A stretch of DNA of 64,000 bases from Patescibacteria group bacterium (lineage in GTDB: Bacteria; Patescibacteriota; Minisyncoccia; UBA6257; JACRHW01): assembly GCA_028865725.1 (NCBI GenBank), contig JAGWJP010000004.1, positions 5,567 through 69,566 on the forward strand, in the 5' to 3' direction. This document shows positions 1,280-62,837 of this stretch, piece by piece (the stretch's first letter is position 1; every line of letters starts with the position of its first letter). The position numbers were made by a program, and so were the translations under genes. The notes beneath the pieces are model-generated. The model worked only from the letters and a program-made list of their open reading frames with translations, was not told the DNA's origin and made no database searches.

Positions 1280-2184
1280 TGGAGCGGGGCTTCGAGAAAA
1301 CAAATATGCAGCGAATTTCGCATTACATAGTTATTCAATCAGGTATCGTTATCGGAATAGGTCTTGCCATACTTCCTATGTATGTGTATGCGTTTACTAT
1401 TGATCATGTTTCCTCTCGGCCCACGAATAGTTTTACGGTACTTCCCGCACATCTCAGTGTAAACCTCTCATCAACCGATGTGGCATCTACGTCTATTTTT
1501 CTGGTGAATCAAAGCAATAAGACGATTGATTTTTCTGTGAGTGTGCGTGATACATCCGGGCTTGCGCATTCGGCACGCAATTGGATTATACCAGAGATAA
1601 CATCATTTTCTCTGGATCCAGGGCAACGCATTCGATTTGGGATTATGGTGCAGCCCCCCGCCTCGCTTCTTGATGGTGATTATTATGCGTCACTTCTGAT
1701 TGCGGGAACTACGCGTGATGAAACTGCATTGCATTTGATCAGCAGCTTAGAGGTGCCCGTGTTTATCGCCGCCAATAAAGGAGGCACGCTCATCACGAAA
1801 GGGGAGATTACGCGTTTTTATGTGGCACCAGTGCTTTTTTCTTCTCCCATTCATTTTGAGTGGTCCTATCGCAACAAAGGAAATTCCTATGTAAGAACAG
1901 GAGGGGTGATTGTAGTACACGATGTACTGCGCGGTGCGGAGGAGGACATTCCTATCAATATGTTTTATGTTCTTTCGGGAGACACCAAAAATATTGTGAC
2001 GTCCTATGCGCCACGCGTTTCATTCGGTATTTTTACTGCCACGCTTGCGTTATTTGATGAGAAGCCTCACTCAATTATATTTGTGCTCGTTCCGTGGCAA
2101 GAAACAGGTATTGTTCTTGTGTTTATAGTGTTGTGGTGGGTCGGGAATGGGATGCGAAAGAAATCGCATATGAGCGTGAAATAA
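1279..2184 (+). CDS. Membrane-anchored hypothetical protein (N-terminal signal/TM plus C-terminal TM); first gene of surface-protein cluster
   Basis: Hydrophobic segment near N-term (IVIQSGIVIGIGLAILPMYVYAF) and near C-term (IIFVLVPWQETGIVLVFIVLWWV); ATGA coupling to upstream gene; resembles DUF916/DUF3324-type layout (inference). Confidence 0.45.
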   Translation: MERGFEKTNMQRISHYIVIQSGIVIGIGLAILPMYVYAFTIDHVSSRPTNSFTVLPAHLSVNLSSTDVASTSIFLVNQSNKTIDFSVSVRDTSGLAHSARNWIIPEITSFSLDPGQRIRFGIMVQPPASLLDGDYYASLLIAGTTRDETALHLISSLEVPVFIAANKGGTLITKGEITRFYVAPVLFSSPIHFEWSYRNKGNSYVRTGGVIVVHDVLRGAEEDIPINMFYVLSGDTKNIVTSYAPRVSFGIFTATLALFDEKPHSIIFVLVPWQETGIVLVFIVLWWVGNGMRKKSHMSVK

Positions 2185-2227
2185 TGCACATATACATATA
2201 TGCGAGAACCCTATATAATAAAAACAT

Positions 2228-2965
2228 ATGAAGCGCGCATCAACGATCATTAGTATTTTCGCTTATCTTCTTCTCGTTTCTTATGCGGGAGCGGATACGA
2301 TGTCTTCCGCGAACTATAAGATTGTACAGGATTCATTGAATTATGGAGGAAGTGTGAGTTCTTCCACAAACTATAGTCTTAATGATACGGCAGGAGATGT
2401 GGCCCCGGGATCTATCAGTAGCACTAATTATACGATAGGGGGTGGGTACTTGCCCATGAATGAGACGACGCTTTCTATCTCTCTTTTAAGCCCTACATCT
2501 CTTTCATCGCTGCAAGATCAGACATCGGGCTCTTCCACAGATACTTCCCCGGTGACTGTTACCACCGACGACCCCGCAGGATACGCCCTGACGGTGAGTG
2601 CTGCCACATCGCCTCTTCTTGAAAAGGGAAGCGATAGTATTGCTGATTATGCGGAAACGGCGAGTGGAACACCGGAATTTTGGAGTGTAGCCACAGGGGA
2701 CGCCGCGTTTGGTTTTTCTGTGAGCGGGTCTAATGTACCCGGGCTGTTTAAGGATAATGGCAGCGCGTGCGGATCAGGATCTGCAAATGGATTATGTTTT
2801 ATGGGATTCAAAGGAACTAATCCTATTACGATAGGAAGTATGAGCACACGTACATCCACGAGCGGTGACACCACTACGCTTCACTATCAAATGGAAACAA
2901 AAGGAGCAACGATTTCTCCGGGAACTTACGGCGGCACTCTCACGCTTACCGCAACTGCGAATTAA
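2228..2965 (+). CDS. Secreted Ser/Thr-rich protein with three S-x-NY-x-[IL] N-terminal repeats
   Basis: Signal peptide MKRASTIISIFAYLLLVSYAGA; repeats SANYKIV / STNYSLN / STNYTIG; C-terminal GTYGGTLTLTATAN reminiscent of WxL-domain tail (weak). Confidence 0.5.
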   Translation: MKRASTIISIFAYLLLVSYAGADTMSSANYKIVQDSLNYGGSVSSSTNYSLNDTAGDVAPGSISSTNYTIGGGYLPMNETTLSISLLSPTSLSSLQDQTSGSSTDTSPVTVTTDDPAGYALTVSAATSPLLEKGSDSIADYAETASGTPEFWSVATGDAAFGFSVSGSNVPGLFKDNGSACGSGSANGLCFMGFKGTNPITIGSMSTRTSTSGDTTTLHYQMETKGATISPGTYGGTLTLTATAN

Positions 2966-2973
2966 GGGCTATT

Positions 2974-4878
2974 ATGCAAATCAAAAAATATCTTATTACA
3001 GCAGGAAGTAGCGTGGTAATAATAGCGGTATCAGTACAGGCTTCTTTTGTGTGGGGAGCGGGAGGGAGTCCGCCTGTCACGGCGACGACAAGTAATACGA
3101 TTTCAATCACTATTAATGCCGCTTCGGGGGGCTCTACATCGTTGTCTGCGGGGACAACGAGCAACGCAAGTACTCTTCCGGTATCCTCTGCAACGTCCAC
3201 CGCATCATCTTCGTTGCCGTATATTCAACCTGTATCTTCAAGTACGCCCCCTTCAGTTCTCTCTGTCTTAATACAGAATATTACGGATTATTCGGCGGAA
3301 ATAGTAGTAAAGAGCAATGAGAATGTATCGGTAAAAGCAAGCTACAACCCTCTTGGTTTTTTCCAATCAGAATCCATATATGATACTGCAACGAGCACGG
3401 ATCATATCCTCACATTAAATGGATTGGATCCAGAAACGCAATATGTTTTTCAGCTTGTATTAACAAATGAAAATGGATTACAAACATTAGACAAAGCAAG
3501 AGATTTTCGTACTCTTTCTGATATTACCCCCCCCGTTATTACCCATCTGCATGTGTTCGATATCACGGATAGAACTGTACGTTTTGATTTTGATACCAAT
3601 AAGCCTGCGAATGTAACGATTTTATATGGATCTACACCGCGACTCGAGCTTGGAAACTTATTAGTGGGGGGGTTTGATGTAACTCACTCGCTCTTTTTGT
3701 CGGATTTAAAGCCAAGCACCCCATATTATTTACAGGTTGTGGTAGCGGATCATTTTGGAAATAGCGCAAAAAGTACGCAAGTGAATTTTACGACGCTTGC
3801 CGATACATTTCCGCCAAGCAACGTCTATAATGCTCTAGTGAATGTGATGAGCACTAGCACGTTGATTCAATGGCAAAATCCTCCAGAAAACGATTACGCG
3901 CAAACCATTGTAGTACGATCTCCTGTGACATATCCGAAGACACCAAAAGATGGCGTCGTTATATTTGAGGGAACTTCTACTTCATTTGTCGATTCTGTAG
4001 CGACGGAGACTACGAAACATTATTTTTACACCGTCTTTACAAAAGACTCGACAGGAAATGTAGCATCTGGTGCGCTGGCACAACCGCCAGGGACCCCTGG
4101 ATTTTTGGTGACTAAAAATAGTACTATCATTGATACTGGACTCACCGCCCGTGTAGTGCGGGGGAGCATGGATTTGCAAAGCGGACCCCTTTCTGTAGTG
4201 GCGACAAGTCAGGAGGGTTTTCATGCACTTTCCAATACGCCGCTTACGCTCAGCGTCCCCGCGTCGCGCGTCGTGAAAGCTGTACAGTCCGCGTATCTTA
4301 CCGTCGATCGAAATACTTATTTTCTTGCATTGAATCCCATAACCCATGCCTATGAAGGCCTTACCATCACTCCTGTACAGGAAGGGCACTATCCATTTAC
4401 TATCACTTTTCGTTATCGTGACAATACTATTGAACAAATTCCTGGTATTCTTGTGGTGGATCCTACGGGAACCGTTTATGAGATACAAGATAATAAACAC
4501 ATTCCCGTTCCCAACGCGCGTATTGCGTTGTATATGTTGAATTCCGGAACACGGCAATACGATTTGTGGCCCGCAGGTTCTTATCACCAAGTTAACCCGG
4601 AAATGAGCGGGAACGATGGATCCTATGCGTTTTTTGTGCCCGCGGGAACTTATTATATTGAAGTAGCAAAGGAGGGATATTTATCCTATGCGTCAAAACC
4701 TTTTACGGTGGGAAATGAAGCGATACATCTTGATATTCAATTGATGCGTCCAAATAGTATTTCATCATGGATGCGGGGAATCATGCAGCGATTTGCTTCT
4801 TCGAGCCATAAAACTATTATTGAAGCGACAGGTCTTATTACGCTTGTGATTGTGTCGCTTTTGATTCTTTTACTGTAA
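2974..4878 (+). CDS. Large cell-surface protein: signal peptide, S/T-rich linker, three Fn3-like repeats, CarbopepD_reg-like domain, C-terminal TM anchor
   Basis: Three homologous ~90-aa units (ITDYSAEIVV..., VFDITDRTVRFDF..., LVNVMSTSTLIQWQNP...) with Fn3-like conservation; YGSYAFFVPAGTYYIEVAKEGYL (carboxypeptidase regulatory-like); terminal hydrophobic LITLVIVSLLILLL. Confidence 0.6.
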   Translation: MQIKKYLITAGSSVVIIAVSVQASFVWGAGGSPPVTATTSNTISITINAASGGSTSLSAGTTSNASTLPVSSATSTASSSLPYIQPVSSSTPPSVLSVLIQNITDYSAEIVVKSNENVSVKASYNPLGFFQSESIYDTATSTDHILTLNGLDPETQYVFQLVLTNENGLQTLDKARDFRTLSDITPPVITHLHVFDITDRTVRFDFDTNKPANVTILYGSTPRLELGNLLVGGFDVTHSLFLSDLKPSTPYYLQVVVADHFGNSAKSTQVNFTTLADTFPPSNVYNALVNVMSTSTLIQWQNPPENDYAQTIVVRSPVTYPKTPKDGVVIFEGTSTSFVDSVATETTKHYFYTVFTKDSTGNVASGALAQPPGTPGFLVTKNSTIIDTGLTARVVRGSMDLQSGPLSVVATSQEGFHALSNTPLTLSVPASRVVKAVQSAYLTVDRNTYFLALNPITHAYEGLTITPVQEGHYPFTITFRYRDNTIEQIPGILVVDPTGTVYEIQDNKHIPVPNARIALYMLNSGTRQYDLWPAGSYHQVNPEMSGNDGSYAFFVPAGTYYIEVAKEGYLSYASKPFTVGNEAIHLDIQLMRPNSISSWMRGIMQRFASSSHKTIIEATGLITLVIVSLLILLL

Positions 4879-5522
4879 TGAACATACACCTTCGTTCTAT
4901 ATCGAAATATAGTATTGGATTTTTTATAATTGGAATCGTTGCATGTTCTTTGGTATTTGCAGAAGACATGGTTGCTCCGCAGCTTTCCAGAGTTACGATT
5001 ACGGGGAGTATTGCGATAAAACTATATTCAGATGGCGCATTTATTACGTGGGAGAGCAATAGACCCGAACGATACATTCTTTCTTATGGGGATACTCTCG
5101 CGTATGGACAAACAGAGACTTCGCCCTTACTTGTGACACGCCATGAGGCTATTTTGCGCAATCTCCACAGTGCGACGGTTTATCATTTTCGCATTACGCT
5201 TGAAGACGGATACAATCAAGGCATAAGCAGGGATTACAGTTTTACTACGCTTGCACAAGGTGTAGCGTTGCTTCCTCCAATCGGGCTGGAACGTTTTCTT
5301 CTGTATGGGAACAGAGGTGAGGATGTTTTGCGTTTGCAGCAATTTTTAACGAGGGAAAATTTATATACAGGTCCAATCACTGGATTTTACAATCAAGATA
5401 CAAAGATTGCGGTAGAACAATTTCAATGCAGAGAACGCATAGTGTGCGGAAATAGCTTCTATGGTTATGGGGAAGTGTTGCGAAATACTTTTCACGCTAT
5501 CAATGCACTCCTCGGGGCGTGA
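4878..5522 (+). CDS. Secreted Fn3-like plus peptidoglycan-binding (PG_binding_1-like) domain protein
   Basis: N-terminal TM/signal; C-terminal GNRGEDVLRLQQFLTRENLYTGPITGFYNQDTKIAVEQFQ matches PG_binding_1 consensus; ATG overlaps upstream stop (TAATG). Confidence 0.55.
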   Translation: MNIHLRSISKYSIGFFIIGIVACSLVFAEDMVAPQLSRVTITGSIAIKLYSDGAFITWESNRPERYILSYGDTLAYGQTETSPLLVTRHEAILRNLHSATVYHFRITLEDGYNQGISRDYSFTTLAQGVALLPPIGLERFLLYGNRGEDVLRLQQFLTRENLYTGPITGFYNQDTKIAVEQFQCRERIVCGNSFYGYGEVLRNTFHAINALLGA

Positions 5523-19625: not shown

Positions 19626-21113
19626 ATGAGGAGAGGAATTCAGGAAGCGATTGATGCTATTCTCGTGGGGATTATTGCGGGAGGTCTTGCGGCTCCTTTT
19701 CTGAGTACTTCAGTGACGTGGTATGTGTGCGCAGGGGTTGCCGTGACTGATCTTATAAGTATCGCCGCGTTTCGCAAGGCTATTTCCCTACGAGCCATGC
19801 AAACGTTTGTGGCGCTACAGGTAGTATGTGCGATGGTACTGTACGCGCACTTCTTTGTGGCAGCACAGCAGGCATGGGTCATGCGCATGTGGCAGCCGCG
19901 AGGCACCGTTGCGCTTGAAGGTGTGGTGGCATCTCCACCGGAATCCACAGACAAGGTTACGCGCTTTCTCATCGCAGTGTCCTCTCCGCATGTTACGCGT
20001 GTGAGCGTGGTGGGGGATATCCACACACTCGCCGATATCCGTTATGGAGATGTGGTGGGCGTCGCAGGTGTTGCAGAGACACCGCAAGCGTATACCGCCG
20101 CAAAAGATCCTACTCTACGCGCCGAGTTTGCGTTTCCTCGCGTATCTCTTCTTCATCATGCGGATTCGTTTTCATATTACGCCCGCCTTCTTGAGCTCAA
20201 AACCGTATTTGCTCACAACATTCAACGTAGTATTCCCGATCCTTATGCTTCGTTTGGTATCTCATTGCTTATGGGGAAATCAGGTATTCCTGCAGAACTT
20301 TCTCAAGCCATGCGCCTTACGGGTACCACGCATCTCGTTGCACTTTCCGGTTTTAATATTTCTGTCATGAGCGTATATCTTTTTTCATTTCTGTTGTGGC
20401 TTCGCATACATCGCAAAATAGCATTGCTGCTTTCCGGAATTATTATTATTGTGTTTGTAATCATGATGGGCGCTGAAGCATCTCTGGTGCGTGCGGCAGT
20501 GATGGGAGAGCTTGTGATTGTGGCCGGATTGCTAGGGAGGCCATATTCATTTTGGCGCGCGGTATTATGCGCTGCATGCGGGATGGTAGTATTGAACCCT
20601 GTTATTCTTATAAATGATGTAGGATTTCAACTTTCTTTTCTTGCAACCCTGGGTCTTGCGCTCTTGCTGCCTATTTTTGATACGCGATTCGGCGGGGGGG
20701 AGACAGTCTTTGATTGGAAAATGAATTTTTTTGCGACCTGTGCGAGTCAAATCATGGTATTTCCTATTCTCATAAATACATTTGGGATTTTTTCTCCGCT
20801 TTCTCTTGTCACGAACGTCTTGATCCTTTCTGTGATTCCTGCGACTATGCTTGTAGTATTTATGGTGGGGTTGTGCGGGTTTGTGAGCAGCATGTTTGCT
20901 GCAGCGATAGGACTTATCGCGTCGCTTCTTCTGGGATATGAAATCGGGGTGATCCGATTATTCTCGACCATCCCGCTTACGCTCACCTTTTCTGCCGGTT
21001 TTATGGCGCCACTATTTTTTGTGGTGTACTATATAGGGCTTGCACTCCTGATATCACGATTTTGGAACGTGCGGTATACTATAGATACGTATCATGTTTC
21101 AAGTACAGAATGA
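19626..21113 (+). CDS. comEC: ComEC/Rec2 family competence channel protein (short form, no C-terminal metallo-beta-lactamase domain)
   Basis: Polytopic membrane protein with LTGTTHLVALSGFNISVMSVYL competence-domain signature; ends at 495 aa. Confidence 0.8.
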   Translation: MRRGIQEAIDAILVGIIAGGLAAPFLSTSVTWYVCAGVAVTDLISIAAFRKAISLRAMQTFVALQVVCAMVLYAHFFVAAQQAWVMRMWQPRGTVALEGVVASPPESTDKVTRFLIAVSSPHVTRVSVVGDIHTLADIRYGDVVGVAGVAETPQAYTAAKDPTLRAEFAFPRVSLLHHADSFSYYARLLELKTVFAHNIQRSIPDPYASFGISLLMGKSGIPAELSQAMRLTGTTHLVALSGFNISVMSVYLFSFLLWLRIHRKIALLLSGIIIIVFVIMMGAEASLVRAAVMGELVIVAGLLGRPYSFWRAVLCAACGMVVLNPVILINDVGFQLSFLATLGLALLLPIFDTRFGGGETVFDWKMNFFATCASQIMVFPILINTFGIFSPLSLVTNVLILSVIPATMLVVFMVGLCGFVSSMFAAAIGLIASLLLGYEIGVIRLFSTIPLTLTFSAGFMAPLFFVVYYIGLALLISRFWNVRYTIDTYHVSSTE

Positions 21114-32213: not shown

Positions 32214-32693
32214 ATGCAGGAACAACAATCATTGCAAAATCTTGAGCGGCAAATGGCGGTACTTCAGGAAGAGATACAAGCACGCAAACGTGAGCTTCAG
32301 AAGCAACGGGAGGCTGAAGGAGAAGTATCTCCTATGCCGCACGACAAAGATATCGCACACGAAGTGATAGGAAAAAAATTAGAAGCGGCTCAAAAAGCAC
32401 TTCCCCGCTCGCCCGAAAATCCGTTTGCTTCTGCCGAGGAAGAGTCACGAGACGTGGGTGCGGGTCTTCGTCCTCAAAAGCTTCATCAAGAGCAACCCTC
32501 GTACGAATCTCCCGAGCTTGTGGATCCTTTGCGGCCATTTCAAGAACTTGTGGTGCGGCAGAATCTTGATACGGCGATGAGTGCCATTGCAGCAACTCGC
32601 AATCCTGCGCTTATTGATGCGTTTCATGATTGGCTGGTAGAGCAGGCTTATCAATTTTTAGTGAAAAAAGGCGATCTTGATATAGTGGTGTAA
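32214..32693 (+). CDS. Hypothetical coiled-coil protein
   Basis: Charged, Q/E-rich N-terminus; 7 nt upstream of coupling-protein gene. Confidence 0.4.
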   Translation: MQEQQSLQNLERQMAVLQEEIQARKRELQKQREAEGEVSPMPHDKDIAHEVIGKKLEAAQKALPRSPENPFASAEEESRDVGAGLRPQKLHQEQPSYESPELVDPLRPFQELVVRQNLDTAMSAIAATRNPALIDAFHDWLVEQAYQFLVKKGDLDIVV

Positions 32694-32700
32694 CTTCTTA

Positions 32701-35175
32701 ATGTCTTTTGTTTTTTTTATTGTTGCGTGCGTAATCCTTCTCATATTGTTCGTGATAGGACTTCTTATGCTTTCGCGCTTCCGTGCGCGTGGAGCCCTGG
32801 CGCGCGGGCTTAATATGACGCTTTTTTCAGTACGTGTGGCACGTGAATTTTCAGAGCGTGGCGGTCAATCCGGAGAGCAACAGCAGAAACAAGAAAAAGA
32901 CCTCATTGCGGTTACTGAACAGATGCTTTCCTCAATGAGCAGTCTTCATTCTAAAGGATGGAAAAAATTTTTATACGGAGAACCTTATGTTGTATTTGAG
33001 ATAGGGGTGCATCATATCGGCGAAGAAATTAGCTTTTATGTAGCGACGCCCAATGCATATTCCGAACTTATTGAAAAACAGATTCATTCATTTTATCCGA
33101 CTGCAGAGATTGCGCCCGCGACAGACTATAATATTTTTAATCCTGCGGGTATAAGCGTGGGTGCATATATGATCCTCAAGGGGTATCAAGTGCTCCCTTT
33201 TCGTACGTATCAGATGCTTCCCGCAGATCCGCTTGGTGATATTTTGACAGCCATGTCAAAATTGTCACGCGAAGGGGAGGGTGCCGCATTTCAGGTCTTA
33301 ATTCGCCCATCGCACAAAAAGCATTATGCAAAAGAATCGTCCCGTATTCTCAAAGAGTTGCAAAAAGGGGTTTCTTGGAAGGAGGCGTTGCATAAAGTAG
33401 GATCATCATTTGGCACCGAAGTGCTCCAGGAAATAAATCGGGCGGTAAATCCTCTTGTCGAAACGTCAGGAGAAAAAAGGGAGGAGCCGCGGCAGGTACT
33501 CCCTCATCACCAAGAGTTGATAAAAGCGGTTGCGAATAAATTTTCCAAGCCGGCATTTGATGTGAATGTACGACTTGTTGCCTCTGCGCCTACTGAAATG
33601 AAAGCAGAAGAAATCTTGCGCGACATGCAGAGCGCGTTTGTTCAATTTGAAGCTCCGGATTTTAATGCATTTCATGCAGTGGCGATGAAAGGAAAAGCTC
33701 GCGACGCATTCATGCGCGATTATTCATTCAGAATTTTTAATGAACAGTACGCCATGTTTTTAGGTACGGAGGAAATAGCAAGTTTTTATCACTTTCCGCT
33801 TCCCACCACCGCGACACCTCGTGTACGGTTTCTCAAAGCAAAACCGGCAGAACCTCCGCGCGATCTCCCCGAAGCAGGAGTTATTTTGGGAACTAACGTG
33901 TATCGCGGACAGGAAACGCTCGTACGTATTCACGGAGAAGATCGCCGTCGGCACATGTATATTATTGGACAGACAGGGACAGGTAAATCAACCCTTTTAA
34001 AGCACATGATCCGTCAGGACATTGCGGCGGGGCATGGTATTGCAGTACTTGATCCGAATGGCGATCTGGTGGATGCGGCGCTTTCATATGTGCCCAAAGA
34101 ACGGGCTGATGATGTTATTGTGTTTGATCCGAGCGATGTGGCGCACCCTATGGGATTGAACTTTTTAACGATTGATCCCGCAAAGCCTACCCAAAAAACG
34201 GATGTGATCGATGAGTTTTATAAGATTTTAAAAGCAGTATATAAAGATCAGCCGGAGGGGTTCGGTCCGCTGTTTGAAAAATATTTTCGCTATGCCTTAA
34301 TGCTGTTGCTTGATGATTATGAAAATGAAATTCCTACTATCGCCGAAGTAGGAAGAGTATTTGCAGATGAAGCTTATCGTGAAGCAAAATTGAGCCGCGA
34401 AAAAAATCCTGATATCAAGCGTTTTTGGAAGTTTGAGGCGGAGCAAGCACAAGGTGATTGGTCGTTATCCAACATGTCAGCATATATTACCTCAAAATTT
34501 GCGCCGTTTCTGGGAAATGATTATATGCGTCCTATTATTACCCAGCAAAAGAGCGCGTTTGATTTTCGAAAAATGATGGACGAAAAAAAGATTCTTCTCG
34601 TGAAATTGCCGAAAGGTATTGTAGGAGAATTGAATGTCGCGCTCATCGGTATGATTATGGTTTCTCGCTTGATGCTTGCCGCGTTTTCGCGCGCCGATCT
34701 TTCCCCGGAAGACCAAAAGAAAGCTCCGGATTTTTTTGTGTATATCGACGAGTTTCAGGATTTTAGTACGGATTCATTAGCAACCATTCTTGCACAAGGA
34801 CGCAAATACCACATTGATCTTATTATGGCGCACCAGTTTATCGCCCAGCTTACCGATAAGGTGCGTGAAGCGGTATTTGGAAACGTGGGCACCCTGCTCG
34901 CGTTTCGTATTAGTCCGGATGATGCAGAAAAACTGAAAATTCAATTTCAGCCCGTGTTTTCTCCGGCAGATATTGTGAGCATTGATAATTTTAATTGTTA
35001 TATTAAACTTCTTATTGATGGTGCGCCGAGCAGACCTTTTAATATTCAATTCGGGTTTCCTCTGGAAGGCAATATGAAGCTTGCAGGGCAAATCGAAGAG
35101 CTTTCTCGCCTGAAATACGGAAGAGATCGGGAAGACGTTGAACGTGAATATTATGAACGAAGCGCCTCCGAGTAG
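32701..35175 (+). CDS. VirD4/TraD/TrwB-like type IV secretion coupling ATPase (T4SS DNA-binding domain family), N-terminal TM
   Basis: Walker A IIGQTGTGKSTLLKHM; Walker B/DEF region FFVYIDEFQDFSTDSLATILAQGRKYHIDLIMAHQFIAQL typical of TraG/TraD C-terminal domain. Confidence 0.7.
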   Translation: MSFVFFIVACVILLILFVIGLLMLSRFRARGALARGLNMTLFSVRVAREFSERGGQSGEQQQKQEKDLIAVTEQMLSSMSSLHSKGWKKFLYGEPYVVFEIGVHHIGEEISFYVATPNAYSELIEKQIHSFYPTAEIAPATDYNIFNPAGISVGAYMILKGYQVLPFRTYQMLPADPLGDILTAMSKLSREGEGAAFQVLIRPSHKKHYAKESSRILKELQKGVSWKEALHKVGSSFGTEVLQEINRAVNPLVETSGEKREEPRQVLPHHQELIKAVANKFSKPAFDVNVRLVASAPTEMKAEEILRDMQSAFVQFEAPDFNAFHAVAMKGKARDAFMRDYSFRIFNEQYAMFLGTEEIASFYHFPLPTTATPRVRFLKAKPAEPPRDLPEAGVILGTNVYRGQETLVRIHGEDRRRHMYIIGQTGTGKSTLLKHMIRQDIAAGHGIAVLDPNGDLVDAALSYVPKERADDVIVFDPSDVAHPMGLNFLTIDPAKPTQKTDVIDEFYKILKAVYKDQPEGFGPLFEKYFRYALMLLLDDYENEIPTIAEVGRVFADEAYREAKLSREKNPDIKRFWKFEAEQAQGDWSLSNMSAYITSKFAPFLGNDYMRPIITQQKSAFDFRKMMDEKKILLVKLPKGIVGELNVALIGMIMVSRLMLAAFSRADLSPEDQKKAPDFFVYIDEFQDFSTDSLATILAQGRKYHIDLIMAHQFIAQLTDKVREAVFGNVGTLLAFRISPDDAEKLKIQFQPVFSPADIVSIDNFNCYIKLLIDGAPSRPFNIQFGFPLEGNMKLAGQIEELSRLKYGRDREDVEREYYERSASE

Positions 35176-51536: not shown

Positions 51537-54416
51537 ATGAAAATGACCGGAATTATTGCAGGAATTTGCTTTTTGTTGAGCTTTGGGTTCGCGCACGCGG
51601 CACGCACCACGTTCTTTACTGGCCCACATCCCGCTCAATCACTTGTGTGGGGGTACGGGTCGCATACCACCGCAGACAGAGTCGCCGAGGAATACACACC
51701 TTCATCTGACGAAGAGATATGCGAAGTAGATCATGCTTTGTATCGTTCATTGAACGCTTCAGGAGAGGTAATATTATCCGTATATGAGGGCGGTACAGAA
51801 CCTGAGTCGGGCACTTTGATCGCCACATCTTCTCTTTCAAGTGATGCCGTTCCTGTTTCGACGGTTTCGCACAATACTGTCTTTACTCTTGATTCGTGTA
51901 TGAATCTTGTTGCGCACACGTCATATTGGTTTGTCATGACGCGCACGAGACTGCAGTACGGTGCGGGATTTTATTCTCTCTATGGGGCACATGGGGATGA
52001 GGCATCTTCTTCCTACTGGGAGTTTGATACGTTTGGTCCGTATGGATGGCAGAAGCACGCAGATCGGGACTGGTCGTTGGAACTTAAAGGATCCGCACCC
52101 CTAAAAGAGCCCGTGATCATTGTTCCCGGGATTGCGGGAAGCGAACTTTATAATGGCGATGATCTGATCTGGGCAGATCTTACTCAGATGTTGTTTAGCG
52201 CGAGCGATCAATTTATGACCGATAATCTTGCGCTTGATAGCCAAGGAAAGTCGCTCAAATCCATTGAAGCGAAAGATGTAATTGAATCTATTTTGAATGT
52301 TCCACTACTTAGCGTTAATATTTTTAAAAACCTTCACGATGATTTAGTTACGAATAATTATACACTTGGTCAAGATCTCTTTCTTTTCCCCTACGATTGG
52401 CGCCTTAATCTTGATGTTACAGAGGATGCCTTAGCCGAAAAAATCAATGATGTATTGACGCAGACCGGCGCGGATAAGGTAACGATTATCGCGCATAGCA
52501 TGGGAGGACTTTTGGTCAAGGATTATATTCGTCATCATGGCGGGGCAGAGATCGACAAATTGATCTTTGTAGGTACGCCGCATCTTGGCGCACCGGAGGC
52601 GGGTCGCATTATGCTCTATGGCGATACAATGGGTATCCCATGGTTAAATCCTGCGCGCGTGCAGGAGATTACGGCATATTCTCCGGCGACCTACGAGCTC
52701 TTGCCGAGCAGCGCGTATTTTGAGTACTCTCCGGGATATCTTTTGACTGCGAGCTCGAGTACGTTTCTAGACAATGCTGCTTCGCGCGATGCTTTGCTTG
52801 CGCGCGGCGCACATGAGCCGATTATGGGGCTTGCGGATATGTTTTGGAATGAAAATCTCGAGAATCTCGATTTCTCTGGTATTGATACCTACAATATCGC
52901 GGGGTGTGGTACGGGGACGGAGTCTGCCTATGCAATAAAGAGCGATAACGCGCTTGGAAATATTGATTATACCTCAGGCGACGGTACGGTGCCGCTTGTA
53001 AGCGCAGATGCGATCGCCATTCCTTCCGATCACAAATGGTATGTAAAGAATGTAAAACATGCGGAGTTACCGAGCGCTATTGATGTGCGGAGTGTGATTG
53101 CACAAATCTTGTTAGACGGGTCGGTAACGCCTACGGGAAACATCACCGTGAGCGCCACGGATTGTGGTATTCAAGGTAAGGAGATTTCCTGGCATAGCCC
53201 TGTTGAGATTCATGTGTATGATACAGAAGGGCGGCATACCGGCCCCACCGGCAATAATGCAATTGAGTATGGTATTCCAGGTGTGGAGTATACAGTGGCG
53301 GGGCATGACAAGTTTGTTTTCCTGCCAAGTGGCGGCGAGTCGTACCACCTTGTGATGAAGGGGCTTGATAGCGGCTCGTTTGACATGAAAGTCGCCCAAA
53401 ACGTGAATGGCGCAGTAGGTGAAACGGCGGTGTTTAACGATGTGCCGATTACGGCTTCAAGCACGGGAACGATGGATATTACCGATACCAGCACTGACGA
53501 TACGTTGCAGGTTGATTCGGGTGAAGGAGAAAGTCCGTCTATGATTTTGGCGTCTTCTCATCTTGCGGCAGGCGAGGAGGGTGATGTCACGCCGCCCACG
53601 ACATCGCTTGAAATTGAGGGGGCAAGAGACAATGGGGCGTACCAAGGCCCAACGACTGTTTCGCTTACCGCAACAGATGATAATGCCGGAGTCGCGGAAA
53701 CATATGTTGCGCGTGATGGCGGCGACACAGAAGCGTACCGCGGGCCATTAGTGCTTTCTGATCTCGGTGCGCACACTCTTCGTTACTACTCAGTTGATAA
53801 CGCGGGAAATGACGAAACTTTGCAGGAAATTCATTTTAGCATTGAGGCCTCTTCACACGAATTGCGCGCACAATCTATTACGTTTGACGCGATTCCCGAT
53901 GCCGAGCTTGGTACTGCAGATATCGCACTTGTTGCCACATCCACTTCGGGACTCTCGTTGCAGTTTTTTTCGGAGAGTACCGGCACGTGTACTCTCGCGA
54001 GCTCCTCGGTGCATCTTGTGAGCGCAGGAACGTGCACGGTACGCGCGGAGCAGAGCGGAAGTGATTCTTATAGGGCGGCTTCGAGTTCTCAGTCGTTTGC
54101 AGTTCTCGCAGTACCGGTAGATTCTTCTTCAGAGGAGGAGCCGGCGATGAAAGAGGGAGCACATGGAAGTGGGAGTATCTACTTGCCAGTCGCGGCTGAA
54201 CAGCCGGCCGTGGTTGCCGCAGCAGTATCGGCGCCTCTTACGCACGCCACATCAAGCACGTGGGATATTACGGGCGATGGTGCGATTGATATTCATGATT
54301 TTAATACGCTCTGTATAAATTGGGGTGCGCTCGGACAAGGCCCTGCAGATCTGAACCATGATGGAGTGGTCGATATTTTTGACTTTAATGCGCTCATGGC
54401 GCATTGGGGTATGTAG
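51537..54416 (+). CDS. Secreted 959-aa protein: alpha/beta-hydrolase lipase-like domain (PGAP1/LCAT-like), beta-rich repeats, C-terminal dockerin-like domain
   Basis: Signal peptide; VIIVPGIAGSELY and nucleophile elbow IIAHSMGGLL; CHB_HEX_C-like repeat (RYYSVDNAGNDE); C-terminal tandem D-x-[TN]-x-DG-x-[IV]-D repeats DITGDGAIDIHDFN / DLNHDGVVDIFDFN. Confidence 0.6.
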   Translation: MKMTGIIAGICFLLSFGFAHAARTTFFTGPHPAQSLVWGYGSHTTADRVAEEYTPSSDEEICEVDHALYRSLNASGEVILSVYEGGTEPESGTLIATSSLSSDAVPVSTVSHNTVFTLDSCMNLVAHTSYWFVMTRTRLQYGAGFYSLYGAHGDEASSSYWEFDTFGPYGWQKHADRDWSLELKGSAPLKEPVIIVPGIAGSELYNGDDLIWADLTQMLFSASDQFMTDNLALDSQGKSLKSIEAKDVIESILNVPLLSVNIFKNLHDDLVTNNYTLGQDLFLFPYDWRLNLDVTEDALAEKINDVLTQTGADKVTIIAHSMGGLLVKDYIRHHGGAEIDKLIFVGTPHLGAPEAGRIMLYGDTMGIPWLNPARVQEITAYSPATYELLPSSAYFEYSPGYLLTASSSTFLDNAASRDALLARGAHEPIMGLADMFWNENLENLDFSGIDTYNIAGCGTGTESAYAIKSDNALGNIDYTSGDGTVPLVSADAIAIPSDHKWYVKNVKHAELPSAIDVRSVIAQILLDGSVTPTGNITVSATDCGIQGKEISWHSPVEIHVYDTEGRHTGPTGNNAIEYGIPGVEYTVAGHDKFVFLPSGGESYHLVMKGLDSGSFDMKVAQNVNGAVGETAVFNDVPITASSTGTMDITDTSTDDTLQVDSGEGESPSMILASSHLAAGEEGDVTPPTTSLEIEGARDNGAYQGPTTVSLTATDDNAGVAETYVARDGGDTEAYRGPLVLSDLGAHTLRYYSVDNAGNDETLQEIHFSIEASSHELRAQSITFDAIPDAELGTADIALVATSTSGLSLQFFSESTGTCTLASSSVHLVSAGTCTVRAEQSGSDSYRAASSSQSFAVLAVPVDSSSEEEPAMKEGAHGSGSIYLPVAAEQPAVVAAAVSAPLTHATSSTWDITGDGAIDIHDFNTLCINWGALGQGPADLNHDGVVDIFDFNALMAHWGM

Positions 54417-54479: not shown

Positions 54480-54758
54480 ATGAGCATTAATTTAAAAATA
54501 TTTTTATTCTTTGTTGTTTTACCGATTTTACTTGCATACATAAATGCCAGTTTTGTTAATTATAGAAATTTCAACTGGGGATATAATCATGTAAATGAAA
54601 TTAGTATTTTCCTGTTTACAATTGCTTCTTTTGTCGGAGCTTATATAACTTTAAGTAAAAAAAGTTCTACAGGGTTACGAATCTTATCGGGACTAGTTTT
54701 TGTCTTTTCGTTAGTATCAATTTATATTATTCATTCATTTTTGCATTTTGGATTTTAA
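54480..54758 (+). CDS. Hypothetical small membrane protein
   Basis: Three hydrophobic helices; AT-rich. Confidence 0.25.
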   Translation: MSINLKIFLFFVVLPILLAYINASFVNYRNFNWGYNHVNEISIFLFTIASFVGAYITLSKKSSTGLRILSGLVFVFSLVSIYIIHSFLHFGF

Positions 54759-56792: not shown

Positions 56793-56895
56793 GAGTTCTC
56801 CATGCTGCCGAGCGAGGCAGCTTTTTGTATGTATACAAGCGTTGACAAGGGAGGATAGGATGATACACTTATTTTGGTTTATCGGAGGTGTGCAA

Positions 56896-57090
56896 ATGAA
56901 ATATTGTCCTGATTGCGGAACGATGATGCGCCTACTGCAGCAAGGAGATGGATGTGGGGGTATAGGGAAAACAGTAGCGTGTGTGTTCTGTGAAACCATA
57001 TGGAAGAAAACAGGCCGATCTTATGGATCTGTACAAGAAGTATGGTCAAAAGAGAAATTTCGGGCGCGAAGCGATAAGGAAAGGAGGTGA
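56896..57090 (+). CDS. Small zinc-ribbon protein (64 aa)
   Basis: CPDCG...CVFC pair; RBS GGAGGTG before ATG 56896. Confidence 0.4.
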   Translation: MKYCPDCGTMMRLLQQGDGCGGIGKTVACVFCETIWKKTGRSYGSVQEVWSKEKFRARSDKERR

Positions 57091-57096
57091 TGCGTT

Positions 57097-57300
57097 ATGC
57101 GATGCCAACTCGTGAGTAAACTCACCAGCGCAAGCGGCGCAATGCATGGTCTTACTGTAGGGGCTACTGTTCGTTTGGCCGCTGACAACGAAGAAGATCG
57201 AGCTAGCCTTCAGACATTCGTGCAAATTATGAAGGAACAAGGTGTCGATCCGGGTCTTGCTTTTTCTCCGCAGTATATCGAACTTACGTTTCGCTGTTAA
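57097..57300 (+). CDS. Hypothetical small protein (67 aa)
   Basis: RBS AAGGAAAGGAGGTG; immediately upstream of lexA promoter. Confidence 0.35.
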   Translation: MRCQLVSKLTSASGAMHGLTVGATVRLAADNEEDRASLQTFVQIMKEQGVDPGLAFSPQYIELTFRC

Positions 57301-59525: not shown

Positions 59526-60671
59526 ATGTCATTTTCGTACCGAACGTATGAATTCGCACCAAAAGAAGTAATACATATTTCCGAAGATCTTATATCACGG
59601 GCACGGCGGGAGCACCGTTTTTATGATGTGGCAGAGTCCACCATGTTGGGCTTGCTCTCTGATCTGATTCCAGGTTCAGCGCTTGCGTCCTCGTTTTTAG
59701 AGGAGTGGAAACGATTTGAGGCGGATGAGGGAGGCCTAAACTACGGTATTTATTTTTTGTATCCTCGCACCAATCATCTTGTGCGATTTGCCCCTCTGTA
59801 TTGGCATAGACTCGCGCTTCTTATGCGTAACACGACACTGTTTTTAGATCCTGCCATGCAGTATTCATGGGAAGAGGTGAGGAAGTGTTTTGATAACGTG
59901 GTGGTGGGGATTGCAGGATGTAGTGTGGGTAATAGTATTGCCCACGCGCTCGTAGGAGATCTTCGTTTGGGACACTTAAAAATTGCAGATCCTGATTGTT
60001 ATTACTTGCATAATGCAAATCGTGTCCGCCTCTCTCATGAGGATTTAGGGAGAAATAAGAGTGTAGTAACGGCGGAGCAAATTCATGCCCTTGATCCTTA
60101 TTGCGCACTCTCTGTCTTTAGCGAAGGAGTGCATGAACACAATGTGAAAGATTTTATTAAAGGAAATACCGCGCGCGATGAACCCGAAAGTACGGTGATT
60201 GTGGAAGAAACAGATAGTCCGGATATGAAACTGTTTATTCGGGAACAAGCACGTAGCCACAGAAAGCCGGTAGTGATGGTGACGGATTTGGGGTCGGCCG
60301 TACAACGCGATGTTCGACGGTTTGATCTTATTCCCGACCTTCCTTTGACGTATGGAGTCAGTGATCAAGAACTCTACGCAACGCGGGATGCGTGGCGCGC
60401 CGATTTGGCTAACAAGGACCGATTTTTTGAATTCGCGTTTGCGCTTGCGGGGACACACCACAATCGTCTCCCGGAGCTCAAACGTATTATTCTCAAAGAG
60501 CAGCCTCCTCTTTTTGGATGTGTGCCGCAGCTTGGTTCCACTGCAATGATGGCGGGCGGTGTTGCCTCGGAGGCCGTGGTGCGGCTTGTATTGGGGCATG
60601 CGCTTTGCGAGCGATTATTTATTAATAAACATACAGGAGAGGTCGTGGCAGAAGGAGAGATATTTGTATGA
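59526..60671 (+). CDS. E1-like (ThiF/MoeB/MccB-like) protein with degenerate Gly-rich loop and ~120-aa N-terminal extension
   Basis: VVVGIAGCSVGNSIAHALVGDLRLGHLKIADPDCYYLHNANRV parallels ThiF VxVxGxGGxGS...LxLxDxDxVxxSNLNRQ; downstream VVMVTD parallels ThiF VLDCTD. Confidence 0.5.
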   Translation: MSFSYRTYEFAPKEVIHISEDLISRARREHRFYDVAESTMLGLLSDLIPGSALASSFLEEWKRFEADEGGLNYGIYFLYPRTNHLVRFAPLYWHRLALLMRNTTLFLDPAMQYSWEEVRKCFDNVVVGIAGCSVGNSIAHALVGDLRLGHLKIADPDCYYLHNANRVRLSHEDLGRNKSVVTAEQIHALDPYCALSVFSEGVHEHNVKDFIKGNTARDEPESTVIVEETDSPDMKLFIREQARSHRKPVVMVTDLGSAVQRDVRRFDLIPDLPLTYGVSDQELYATRDAWRADLANKDRFFEFAFALAGTHHNRLPELKRIILKEQPPLFGCVPQLGSTAMMAGGVASEAVVRLVLGHALCERLFINKHTGEVVAEGEIFV

Positions 60672-61726
60672 AGAATTATGACGCATGGAACATAGAGCCG
60701 CTTCGTGATATGGGCGACAGGCATGCACTGTATCTGAATCTTATTCAATGGGCAATCTTGGCGCCCAATTCGCACAATGTACAACCTTGGCGGTTTGTGA
60801 TACGCGCGCGTGATCATGAAATTGTTCTCTACGTTGCGAAGGAGGGAATTCTTCCCGCATCAGATATAATAGGGAGACAAGCGCATATCAGTGTGGGGTG
60901 TGCACTCGAAAATCTTGCGCAAGCCGCAGCATATTATGGCATGACCATCGTTCCGCATATTACCCACACCGAGGACAAGGAGACGTGTGTGAGGATAGTA
61001 TGTTCCGATCCTTCCGCGCATGCTGAAGAGCACGATGGAGTATCGCTTGATTCTATGCGCCAGCGTCGCGTGAACCGCGGAAAATTCGATACGGCGCGCA
61101 ACCTTCCCGAGGCACTTATCCAATCTTTTCATACGTATGCACAAGCAGGCGGACTTATATTTGATAGCATCCGTGATATCCCTACGCGTCTTGCGATCGC
61201 GCAATTTCAGGAGCAAGCAGAAAAGTATGTTTTAGCGCATGATGCGTTTCGTAAGGAGTTGGGTAATTATTTTCTTCCTAACGCTACGGAGGAGGGGCGA
61301 GGAATGCCGGGAAATACATTTGGACTGGGAGATGAGACGTCTTTGCGTGTTCACCGCGCTTTACAACAGGAGGGACCGTTCGACCCCGATCTCGCAAACG
61401 GCATGGCGGTCTCAGCGCGTGATGCTATGAAACATTCCCCGCTTATCGGTATTATTAGTATAGAGGAAGATATGCCGTTCTATTGGATTCAAGCGGGAAG
61501 GGTATTGCAACGCAACCTTCTTGAAGCTGAGCGGTACGGAGCAAGTACTTCGATTCACGCAGCGTTGATAGAAGTAAATTTTTTTAATAAGTTATTACGA
61601 TTGCGTTTGAAGAGAAGCGCGCGTCCGACTGTGTTATTTAGAGCGGGATTTTGTACAGAAGAGAGACCTCATGCGCCACGGGCGCCCATAGAAGGGGTAG
61701 TTACCGTGGAGAAAGATCGTGTTTGA
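60668..61726 (+). CDS. Long nitroreductase-family (FMN-dependent, SagB/McbC-like length) protein
   Basis: LAPNSHNVQPWRFVI matches nitroreductase S..N.QPW.F.V signature; 352 aa (longer than classical NfsB-type); ATGA coupling to upstream gene. Confidence 0.6.
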   Translation: MKNYDAWNIEPLRDMGDRHALYLNLIQWAILAPNSHNVQPWRFVIRARDHEIVLYVAKEGILPASDIIGRQAHISVGCALENLAQAAAYYGMTIVPHITHTEDKETCVRIVCSDPSAHAEEHDGVSLDSMRQRRVNRGKFDTARNLPEALIQSFHTYAQAGGLIFDSIRDIPTRLAIAQFQEQAEKYVLAHDAFRKELGNYFLPNATEEGRGMPGNTFGLGDETSLRVHRALQQEGPFDPDLANGMAVSARDAMKHSPLIGIISIEEDMPFYWIQAGRVLQRNLLEAERYGASTSIHAALIEVNFFNKLLRLRLKRSARPTVLFRAGFCTEERPHAPRAPIEGVVTVEKDRV

Positions 61727-61727
61727 T

Positions 61728-62837
61728 ATGGCAAAGAAACTTATTTCGTCTCACCGGTCTACGCGTTTACGAAAGCTTGCACAAGCAATACCGTCTCCTC
61801 TTGCGACCTATCGCAAGGGAGACGTATTGTTTTATGTCTATCGTGCGAAAAATCTTTTTTCTCCTACTTGGGATCATCCCGTGCTCAAAAAGCTCGTCGC
61901 GGAAGCGAGGCGCGAATCGTATTACCGGTATGGAGATATTGCGGAATTTGATGCGTATGACAGCAAGGCCGTGGTGTACGTGGCGCGCGTTGTATATAAC
62001 GATGTGCGCGGAACCATAGCATACCCAGTAGAAGAATGGGCTACGATGCGTTTTGTCCCTCGGGATGGCGTGCCTCACGACATTGAAGATTTCAAGGAGT
62101 ATGAGTTGCATGGGCAACCAATGGGAAGCTCTGCACATAATTCTCTTTTTTCCGCGCATCAGTTGACTGCAGATAATGTGATTTCCGGATCACGTCTCTC
62201 GGGAATCCGTTCCTATTGTCTTCGGAAATATGATGAGCATGATTCAAAACATATTCCCCGTTTTTGCTATTTTAGAGAATGTTTCGTTTTGATGCATCAT
62301 GCATTTCTGAAGCTCAATGTTGCGCGCAATACATTTCGTTACCGTGTGGCACAGACCTCTCACGAGTTTATTGAGAGAGTTCTTACATTTACCGTACGTG
62401 GACAACGCATCGCGCTCACGTGTACGCCAGCGCATCGTATGCTTCATGTAGCGCCGCATGCGATACGATTACAAAGAAAGGGAATCGTATTTCAATATCC
62501 GGCCTATTTTTTGAACCAAAAGGAGCTTTATCTTCTTTTTTCTTCTCTGGTAAAAAAGAATCTGCTGACTTCGAATACGCTGCGCCATTATTTTTCCGCT
62601 TCGTGCACGCAAAATTCGTTTCTCACTCAGCATCAATTTACCTTTTTCCAAGCACGCCTCCTGGGGACATTATGCAGTGCGGAGGGGACTCTTTACGGCA
62701 CTCTACTTACCGGAGAGGAACTTCGCGTGTTGGTGCGCGACATAAGCGATGGGCCTTTTTTATCCATTACCCCCCTTGATACAGTGGAAAAAAATATTGA
62801 GTTATTTATGCGCGAAGAACATATTACGCGTATTTAA
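61728..62837 (+). CDS. Hypothetical protein, last gene of E1-like/nitroreductase operon
   Basis: ATG 1 nt after upstream stop; no recognisable motif. Confidence 0.4.
   Translation: MAKKLISSHRSTRLRKLAQAIPSPLATYRKGDVLFYVYRAKNLFSPTWDHPVLKKLVAEARRESYYRYGDIAEFDAYDSKAVVYVARVVYNDVRGTIAYPVEEWATMRFVPRDGVPHDIEDFKEYELHGQPMGSSAHNSLFSAHQLTADNVISGSRLSGIRSYCLRKYDEHDSKHIPRFCYFRECFVLMHHAFLKLNVARNTFRYRVAQTSHEFIERVLTFTVRGQRIALTCTPAHRMLHVAPHAIRLQRKGIVFQYPAYFLNQKELYLLFSSLVKKNLLTSNTLRHYFSASCTQNSFLTQHQFTFFQARLLGTLCSAEGTLYGTLLTGEELRVLVRDISDGPFLSITPLDTVEKNIELFMREEHITRI

Follow-up and report, generated by a model that had tools for sequence, protein, structure and literature searches.

A putatively secreted LCAT/LPLA2-type hydrolase with a C-terminal dockerin in Patescibacteria, and the pairing of related dockerins with putative membrane-anchored cohesins

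Overall organization of the gene and its product

The 64,000-nucleotide stretch of DNA analyzed here (hereafter the window), from contig JAGWJP010000004.1 of a Patescibacteria group bacterium (assembly GCA_028865725.1), contains at positions 51537..54416 of the plus strand a complete gene, with an ATG start codon, that encodes 959 residues followed by a stop codon. The product is a multidomain, putatively secreted LCAT/LPLA2-like hydrolase with a C-terminal dockerin. A sequence-only reading of this DNA had described a secreted lipase-like protein ending in a dockerin-like pair of calcium-binding repeats, and the 959-residue open reading frame (ORF) and all the motifs that it quoted are indeed present. 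An identical protein is annotated as 'alpha/beta fold hydrolase [Patescibacteria group bacterium]' in the metagenome-assembled genome (MAG) GCA_028868355.1 (contig JAGWUQ010000006.1), and is also found in Logan assemblies of sequencing runs. All positions given below for the gene and its modules refer to the plus strand of the window.

The N-terminus resembles a signal peptide (residues 1-22, positions 51537..51602; MKMTGIIAGICFLLSFGFAHA, followed by Ala). It shows the n/h/c layout of a Sec substrate, with a basic n-region, a hydrophobic core with a mean Kyte-Doolittle value of 2.24 over residues 5-19 and an AXA site, and residues 2-21 form a helix in the AlphaFold2 model. No further transmembrane-like stretch follows in the lipase protein, the hydropathy maximum being 1.34. 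From this layout together with the absence of a later hydrophobic segment, we infer that the protein is secreted via Sec and that the mature form itself lacks a membrane anchor.

The remainder of the protein consists of six modules and a linker. The N-terminal all-β sandwich (residues ~45-190, positions 51669..52106), modeled mostly at a predicted local distance difference test (pLDDT) score of 80-95, weakly resembles the 'choice-of-anchor R' type (NCBIfam choice_anch_R, 25 bits, below the cutoff of 30), and matched no Pfam family when scanned alone. It leads into the LCAT/LPLA2-type α/β-hydrolase domain (residues 191-540, positions 52107..53156; pLDDT >90). Next comes an all-β sandwich common to the LCAT-like family (residues 541-690, positions 53157..53606), which is conserved in the homolog alignment and modeled at pLDDT >93, and for which Pfam returned no family. 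A small β-barrel of the OmpL47 or CHB_HEX_C_1 type (residues 691-775, positions 53607..53861) is recognized by NCBIfam barrel_OmpL47 with 67.8 bits (cutoff 40) and, scanned alone, by CHB_HEX_C_1 with 23.9 bits (cutoff 22). The immunoglobulin-like (Ig-like) module at residues 776-870 (positions 53862..54146) is specific to this protein and matches Big_3_5 only weakly (17.3 bits, cutoff 35.5). Finally, a low-complexity linker rich in Ala, Ser, Pro and Glu (residues 871-909, positions 54147..54263), unstructured in the AlphaFold2 model, connects to the dockerin module (residues 910-959, positions 54264..54413), which was assigned from Dockerin_1, a subfamily profile and the predicted fold, and reaches the C-terminus. 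The 'beta-rich surface repeats' of the sequence-only reading are thus β-rich as described, but they are discrete β-sandwich modules (residues 541-690, 691-775 and 776-870) rather than repeats.

The full-length AlphaFold2 model, built on the homolog alignment, is very confident over residues 45-775 (mostly pLDDT >90). Residues 775-959 remain unfolded in it, with pLDDT <50 for residues 776-870, because no aligned homolog carries that C-terminus. A weak Foldseek match of the protein to a cohesin-FN3 construct (PDB 2w1n), with a root-mean-square deviation (RMSD) of 20 Å and a TM-score of 0.27, was rejected as an internal cohesin.

The catalytic domain is of the LCAT/LPLA2 type

The Pfam LCAT family (PF02450) matches residues 211-392 with 85 bits (E 8.3e-24), above the gathering threshold of 21 bits. 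The two motifs that had first suggested an LCAT/PGAP1-like enzyme, IVPGIAGSELY and IIAHSMGGL, correspond to residues 195-205 and 317-325. The catalytic triad is composed of Ser321 (positions 52497-52499), Asp482 (52980-52982) and His508 (53058-53060), which are invariant across 120 aligned homologs and are embedded in the contexts AHS321MGG, SGD482GTVP and H508AELP, with the nucleophile placed in a G/A-x-S-x-G elbow.

Structural similarity search using Foldseek with the catalytic part of the AlphaFold2 model revealed LPLA2 (PDB 4x92 and 4x90) and LCAT (PDB 4x96 and 5txf) as the closest structures, with E-values of ~1e-15 and target-normalized TM-scores of 0.71-0.75, whereas classical bacterial lipases scored far worse. 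The alignments span 383-397 columns against LPLA2/LCAT chains of 375-378 residues, and therefore cover the entire enzyme including the family-specific insertions. The sequence identity is 19-22%. In addition, the lipase protein shows a weak match of 13.4 bits to the extracellular polyhydroxyalkanoate depolymerase PhaZ7. By its domain identity and catalytic triad, the enzyme is an LCAT/LPLA2-type hydrolase, which bears out the apparently secreted LCAT/PGAP1-like hydrolase proposed earlier. Judged by family membership, it would possess phospholipase A and/or acyltransferase activity, and the whole-chain alignment points to phospholipid or acyl-transfer chemistry over that of a generic esterase. 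Similar to LCAT and LPLA2, the enzyme has a Ser-Asp-His triad at similar spacing; unlike them, it is bacterial and forms part of a 959-residue multidomain protein, with a β-sandwich at its N-terminal side and four modules at its C-terminal side.

The LCAT-like family comprises 1421 matches, of which those with names belong to Patescibacteria or to unclassified 'bacterium' MAGs. Its members show extensive module swapping around a conserved lipase core. At least three alternative C-terminal modules occur, namely '...FLQIxTxKGKIEYII', '...LEKEYNKGNINEQAYNLLKEDIEWLL' and '...YYSVDxAGNNEE...' followed by a Lys-rich tail, and some members carry N-terminal β-helix inserts (PF13229).

The C-terminal tail is predicted to fold as a dockerin

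The tail contains two related segments, DITGDGAIDIHDFN (residues 910-923, positions 54264-54305) and DLNHDGVVDIFDFN (residues 938-951, positions 54348-54389), located as quoted in the sequence-only reading. Each begins with a 12-residue calcium loop, DITGDGAIDIHD for loop 1 (residues 910-921, positions 54264-54299) and DLNHDGVVDIFD for loop 2 (residues 938-949, positions 54348-54383), which is followed by a helix of the pattern FN(T/A)L...W. The two 22-residue segments share 11 identical residues, and the tail accordingly displays the dockerin architecture of tandem ~22-residue units, each made of a calcium loop and a helix. A six-frame regular-expression scan of the window found no second paired calcium loop, and the sole other single-loop match lies inside DnaK.

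The 57-residue tail scanned alone matches Dockerin_1 (PF00404) with 26.5 bits, above the gathering threshold of 22.9. The EF-hand_1, EF-hand_5 and EF-hand_6 models also match the isolated tail (24.5-24.7 bits), and a single-sequence search of the PDB placed a sarcoplasmic Ca-binding protein on top. By contrast, when the profile of the tail subfamily described below was compared with the PDB, the best matches with both repeats aligned were the NagH dockerin of Clostridium perfringens (PDB 2jnk/2ozn, E 7e-7), then 5nrk, 2y3n and 5lxv, all of them dockerins from solved cohesin-dockerin complexes, whereas calmodulins aligned over one loop only.

We also modeled the tail by AlphaFold2 apart from the full-length protein. 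The resulting model has a pLDDT of 93.5, with helices at its positions 17-25 and 45-53. The 16 best PDB matches found by Foldseek are all dockerins, the closest being 2y3n_B with TM-scores of 0.87/0.83 and an RMSD of 1.0 Å over 54 columns. The TM-score against 2ozn_B is 0.76, compared to at most 0.30 for EF-hand proteins such as calmodulin and S100. As the sequence-only reading had supposed, the tail is thus a genuine dockerin by profile comparison and predicted fold, and not just an EF-hand pair. Judging from the loop residues, it probably binds two Ca2+ ions.

A DFN-type dockerin subfamily is widespread in Patescibacteria

A word-index search with the tail alone returned one 34-residue fragment and was replaced by a profile search and by an exhaustive HMMER search of 1.84 billion representatives, the latter yielding 3080 tail relatives. 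A tight subfamily, made up of about 58 of the top 150 relatives, ends at the protein C-terminus and has the consensus D-x-N-x-DG-x-VDI-x-DFN-x-LM-x-NWG ... aD-x-N-x-DG-x-VDIFDFN-x-LM-x-NW-x-x. The query tail keeps all 12 near-invariant positions of this subfamily, and is 50-60% identical to those tails that are paired with a cohesin (see below). Dockerin_1 matches 55 of 55 aligned subfamily tails (best E 9.5e-11), and PF00404 is precomputed on most of the database relatives, one of which is named 'dockerin type I domain-containing protein [Candidatus Berkelbacteria]'. More distant relatives in Phycisphaerales are named GC-type dockerin.

To survey the genomic surroundings, related loci were sought in GTDB species genomes with a 10-member subset of the 55-member tail alignment. 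The search retrieved 80 loci, and almost all of them belong to lineages of the Patescibacteria, namely Nealson-, Magasanik-, Jorgensen-, Doudna-, Yanofsky-, Nomura-, Wolfe-, Vogel-, Azam-, Campbell- and Liptonbacteria, Paceibacterota and Microgenomates. Two copies of the tail are present in one of the source genomes, that of a Nealsonbacteria member, which is complete at 647 kb. In 64 of these loci we found 67 tail-bearing ORFs of 115-1463 residues, nearly all with signal peptides and with the tail at the extreme C-terminus. Their cargoes include subtilases, β-helix/NosD proteins, CBM_4_9, Ig-like and adhesin-type modules and many unknowns, and are mostly not carbohydrate-active enzymes (CAZymes). 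Given its C-terminal position on such diverse secreted cargoes, the DFN-type tail behaves like a general sorting or anchoring tag on secreted proteins of the Candidate Phyla Radiation (CPR).

Several further features of the tail-bearing proteins were observed. Tail-only mini-proteins were considered as a class of their own and rejected: the 59-residue 'dockerin-only' protein P0272 (Parcubacteria GW2011_GWC1_43_61; L003:3121-10180) directly follows ORFs of 2026 and 276 residues that carry YDG, MBG_2, Big_13 and Big_5 domains, so that a giant adhesin-like gene has probably been split here, with P0272 as its C-terminus. Most other such proteins lie on very short contigs, and many database 'tail-only' entries may likewise be fragments. 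A recurrent motif, P(G)IPHQFYG or PQFPHxFYG, opens the mature part of many small tail-bearing CPR proteins and marks an uncharacterized cargo domain (loci L016, L024, L028, L033, L035, L053, L059, L063, L069 and L070). Moreover, a variant tail, '...D(F/Y)N..L..NFGK', with Phe in place of Trp, is found on large secreted proteins in L044, L050, L057, L065, L068 and L076, from MAGs auto-labeled 'uncultured Gammaproteobacteria'. It usually has no adjacent cohesin gene, and cohesin-family matches occur at other positions in some of these loci.

Related dockerin genes adjoin genes of a putative cohesin family

All-against-all clustering of the neighboring ORFs revealed one dominant family, with 64 ORFs in 56 of the 64 loci. 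In 62 of the 64 cases the ORF lies immediately downstream on the same strand, and for the 56 ORFs that directly adjoin the tail gene the gaps range from -37 to +58 nucleotides, with two exceptions of 75 and 151 nucleotides. For tail genes of the W type, to which the query belongs, the partner gene is next in 57 of 59; of the two unpaired genes, one is at a contig end and one (L042) is a true orphan. Examples of the pairs are L034:9461-10926, L014:7037-10957 and L046:6128-10923, among the related loci L004-L083.

The partner proteins total about 250 residues and share an architecture of a signal peptide, a conserved β domain of ~135 residues, a linker rich in Pro, Thr and Glu, a C-terminal transmembrane segment (49 of 52) and a basic tail (51 of 52). 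Pfam Cohesin (PF00963) is their top family, matched by 22 of 47 members at E<=1 with a best E-value of 1.3e-9; member 1, aligned to positions 4-120 of the 139-position profile, reaches 22.5 bits against a cutoff of 24.1. A profile of the domain alone, searched against the PDB, aligned end to end with the cohesin CaCohA2 of Clostridium acetobutylicum (PDB 6kgc/6kg8) as its first match, at E ~0.04. The profile of the whole partner had produced spurious N-terminal Big_2-like matches only, and trimming to the globular domain brought the cohesins to the top. Some members are already named 'cohesin domain-containing protein' in UniRef and NCBI, others 'hypothetical'. These observations make a moderately strong case that the partner family is a divergent cohesin, and the encoded dockerin and cohesin presumably bind each other physically.

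One locus, L047, harbors two dockerin/cohesin pairs (L047:5762-7227 and L047:9479-10919). A tail of the main type adjoins a cohesin of the main type, and a divergent 'VDKYDF(S/A)LMM' tail adjoins a very different, Cys-containing cohesin, which hints that the two pairs have co-diverged with matched specificities. The literature searched mentions dockerin or cohesin domains of Patescibacteria, and LCAT-like enzymes of CPR bacteria, only in passing, and we found no description of the gene pair in it. One such mention is the dockerin-domain protein SEML1_0315 of a cultivated Saccharibacterium, which was speculated to target host glycans (PMC10633639), and another concerns a Shapirobacterales MAG.

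The dockerin may tether the lipase to a cohesin anchor encoded elsewhere

Since the receptor is normally encoded next to the cargo in CPR relatives, docking into a cohesin anchor is the most likely mechanism for the query protein as well. We propose, with a probability of roughly 60%, that Ca2+-dependent docking to a transmembrane-anchored cohesin encoded elsewhere holds the LCAT/LPLA2-type enzyme at the symbiont surface. The enzyme would be exported by Sec without a membrane anchor of its own, and its C-terminal 50 residues would fold with two Ca2+ ions into a CPR-specific DFN-type dockerin. This dockerin would plug non-covalently into a single-cohesin type-I membrane protein whose gene probably resides elsewhere in the genome. 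Held on such a stalk, the lipase could act on the membranes of the host or of neighboring cells, and the released acyl chains or lysolipids might feed a lipid-auxotrophic CPR cell; for the substrate and the physiological role of the lipase, this is what we infer. This agrees with what is known of the phylum: Patescibacteria do not synthesize lipids, and the route by which they acquire them is unidentified (PMC11665869); secreted phospholipases have been proposed as agents of that acquisition (PMC8080830), with lysolipids from neighbors as a lipid source (PMC11665869, PMC8080830).

A broader version of this proposal, which we hold only tentatively and with less than even odds, is a minimal cohesin-dockerin display system throughout the phylum Patescibacteria. 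Each of the diverse cargoes (proteases, β-helix proteins and adhesin-like giants) would be co-transcribed with its own cohesin stalk, and the LCAT/LPLA2-like enzyme would have captured the tag by module swapping, thereby becoming a 'trans-loaded' client that strips acyl chains or lysolipids from host membranes.

Several results weigh against docking of the lipase protein to a cohesin. First, the expectation that a dockerin implies a cohesin is supported for the subfamily, with a membrane-anchored cohesin encoded by the next gene for 57 of 59 related genes, but not within the window: PF00963 matched none of its ~50 ORFs even at E<=1, and the partner-family hidden Markov model run on all six frames of the 64 kb returned nothing (best E 0.37). 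The query gene is therefore a rare exception for its tail type, about 1-2 of 59, and the cohesin would have to be encoded elsewhere in the query genome. Second, 25 of the 47 partner members have no Pfam Cohesin match at E<=1, and the E-value of ~0.04 for the PDB sequence match is modest. Third, the Pfam scan that the sequence-only reading had called for succeeds with the tail alone, but Dockerin_1 reaches only 16.4 bits in the full-length protein against the threshold of 22.9, and NCBIfam dockerin_GC 23.3 bits against its cutoff of 29. Fourth, the tail is found in none of the 119 closest LCAT-like homologs, whose C-termini are formed by at least three other modules, and conversely the LCAT-like body is not found among ~330 tail-bearing proteins. 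The fusion of lipase and dockerin is hence unique among ~450 relatives (~330 tail-bearing proteins and 120 LCAT homologs), and the last ~185 residues, comprising the Ig-like module, the linker and the dockerin, are peculiar to the query protein compared to the 119 closest homologs. As the comparison in both directions indicates, the tail is a swapped-in module and the fusion is recent, and it might not yet be integrated into a working system.

Among the alternatives, the one that survives best, although we regard it as unlikely, is an orphan dockerin that recognizes something other than a cohesin, such as glycans of the host cell wall, the wall or S-layer of the symbiont itself or a different surface protein, and that would send the lipase to the host envelope. 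The absence of a cohesin from the window, and in particular of the near-universal downstream cohesin beside the query gene, agrees with this possibility, as do the speculated glycan target of the Saccharibacterium dockerin-domain protein (PMC10633639) and the '...NFGK' tail variant, which likewise usually lacks an adjoining cohesin. Nevertheless, none of the near-invariant positions of the cohesin-paired subfamily is lost in the query, its identity to the paired tails is 50-60%, and a non-cohesin ligand for the DFN subtype lacks direct evidence.

Two further explanations are improbable to about the same degree. In one of them, the tail and the unique Ig-like module are a recently grafted, non-functional remnant of recombination, and the enzyme diffuses freely as an exoenzyme or toxin. 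The lack of a counterpart for the C-terminal ~185 residues in the 119 closest homologs, the uniqueness of the fusion and the lack of a local cohesin would all fit; however, the reading frame is intact up to the natural end of the subfamily (...HWGM-stop), none of the conserved Ca-ligand and hydrophobic positions has been lost, the tail folds confidently in AlphaFold2, and the identical protein occurs in both the NCBI MAG contig and the Logan assemblies. In the other, docking works as proposed but the enzyme has a different activity, serving to remodel lipids or lipoproteins of its own envelope or to hydrolyze polyesters or other esters in the environment. The likeness to LPLA2 and LCAT is indeed at the level of fold and family (19-22% identity), α/β-hydrolases are promiscuous and the PhaZ7 match exists, albeit at 13.4 bits, whereas the alignment of the whole LPLA2/LCAT chain (375-378 residues over 383-397 columns) speaks for the lipid chemistry.

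Least probable of all is a generic calcium module, in which EF-hand-like Ca2+ sites stabilize or regulate the C-terminus of the enzyme without any docking: the similar EF-hand scores on the isolated tail, the sarcoplasmic Ca-binding protein as top single-sequence match and the sub-threshold Dockerin_1 score of the full-length protein are compatible with it, but the EF-hand matches cover one loop whereas dockerins align over both repeats, the predicted fold has TM-scores of 0.76-0.87 to dockerins versus ~0.3 to EF-hand proteins, and this alternative is therefore disfavored, the more so as ~135 residues (the Ig-like module and a flexible linker) separate the tail from the enzyme and the tail module tags unrelated cargoes while being genomically coupled to cohesins.

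Comparison with known cohesin-dockerin systems

The query tail shares with type I dockerins (PF00404), such as those of Pseudobacteroides cellulosolvens Cel48 (PDB 2y3n_B) and Acetivibrio cellulolyticus DocCel5 (PDB 5nrk), a duplicated ~22-residue segment in which a 12-residue D-x-[DNT]-x-D-G-x-[IV]-D-x-x-D calcium loop precedes a helix, as well as its C-terminal location behind a linker. It differs from them in the short spacing of the repeats (28 residues between loop starts), in a D-F-N-x-L-M-x-N-W-G helix motif that ends at the C-terminus, in its borderline Pfam score, in having a lipid hydrolase as cargo, and in occurring in a non-cellulolytic CPR symbiont. NCBIfam NF041540 (GC-type dockerin) and NF041539 (choice-of-anchor R) give sub-threshold matches at the corresponding ends of the query, but unlike the GC-type and 'GPCP' relatives the query tail has no Cys pattern.

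In both sequence and structure, the closest analogue is the non-cellulosomal pair of the NagH dockerin and the NagJ cohesin of C. perfringens (PDB 2ozn and 2jnk). NagH aligns with the query tail without gaps over both loops and at identical spacing (profile E 7e-7), with a TM-score of 0.76 for the fold, and its dockerin is similarly carried by a non-cellulolytic, host-attacking secreted enzyme. The C. perfringens cohesin sits on another secreted enzyme, giving rise to toxin complexes, whereas in the CPR relatives the cohesin is placed on a dedicated transmembrane-anchored stalk protein, encoded beside the cargo.

Functionally, the CPR partner is closest to the single-cohesin surface anchors of cellulosomal bacteria. 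In Clostridium thermocellum OlpA and OlpC and in Ruminococcus flavefaciens ScaE, one cohesin on a cell-bound stalk captures dockerin proteins at the surface, and anchors of this type are held by SLH domains or by sortase. Compared to these, the CPR partner has a C-terminal transmembrane segment and a basic tail, is very divergent in sequence, and forms one-to-one gene pairs with its cargo. A cellulosome, in turn, combines a multi-cohesin scaffoldin with CAZyme cargo, neither of which is seen here: the window encodes no scaffoldin, the relatives' partners bear a single cohesin, and the cargo is a lipid hydrolase. The cellulosome-like scaffold suggested by the sequence-only reading thus does not hold, as the partners in relatives are one cohesin on a transmembrane stalk, typically one per cargo gene, and have no link to the degradation of cellulose.

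The domain families themselves were already known and are partly auto-annotated; the novelty lies in a dockerin fused to an LCAT-like lipid enzyme, in the DFN subtype specific to CPR bacteria and in the one-to-one pairs of cargo and transmembrane-cohesin genes in relatives. CPR bacteria, or Patescibacteria, account for a large part of the diversity of bacteria; they cannot synthesize lipids themselves and live in attachment to hosts. If our proposal is true, a surface-tethered enzyme of the LCAT/LPLA2 type, from a family of >1400 members, would be a concrete candidate for the missing step of lipid acquisition in CPR bacteria. The module of a cargo dockerin and a transmembrane-anchored cohesin also suggests how ultra-small cells with a wall may keep exoenzymes and adhesins at their surface. 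Once confirmed, it would provide a small orthogonal protein-protein pair for engineering, with a tag of ~55 residues and a receptor domain of ~135 residues, as well as a sequence-only handle on the surface proteome of uncultivated CPR bacteria.

Genomic context of the window

The lipase gene is followed after 64 nucleotides by a 92-residue ORF (positions 54480-54758, plus strand) with three predicted transmembrane segments; it belongs to no family, is not a cohesin, and sits where the relatives have the cohesin gene. A 223-residue ORF without a family also lies downstream of the lipase gene. On its left side the window is flanked by another ~257 bp of the NCBI contig, and on its right side by ~5 kb, mostly a histidine-kinase gene.

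The window represents an ordinary CPR chromosome, with dnaK/dnaJ/grpE, groEL, dnaG, rpoD, comEC, scpAB, mraY, serS, alr, the RNase R gene, purA, lexA and one tRNA-Gln. Over its whole length (1-64000), nearly all long ORFs are on the plus strand, every 2-kb bin has a positive GC skew and the cumulative skew rises monotonically. The window thus appears to lie within one replichore, with its genes co-oriented with replication.

Four consecutive ORFs on the plus strand at positions 1279-5522 possibly constitute a surface or cell-wall cluster. Two of them (301 and 245 residues) have no Pfam family, one (634 residues) carries fn3 and CarboxypepD_reg/PEGA domains and one (214 residues) carries PG_binding_1; none is cohesin- or dockerin-like. 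Also on the plus strand, an 824-residue coupling ATPase of the VirD4/TraG type, preceded by an ORF of 159 residues without assignment, occupies positions 32214-35175, and the ComEC competence channel is encoded at positions 19626-21113. Both are components of DNA uptake or transfer that are typical of CPR genomes. At positions 59526-62837 (plus strand), ORFs for a ThiF/E1-like protein (381 residues), a nitroreductase-like protein (352 residues) and an unknown protein of ~370 residues form a row that lies ahead of a 7TM-HisKA kinase. Upstream of this row are tiny ORFs of 76 and 67 residues (at about 56860-57300) and a LexA-like repressor, and the row could be a peptide-modification cluster, similar to those of ribosomally synthesized and post-translationally modified peptides.

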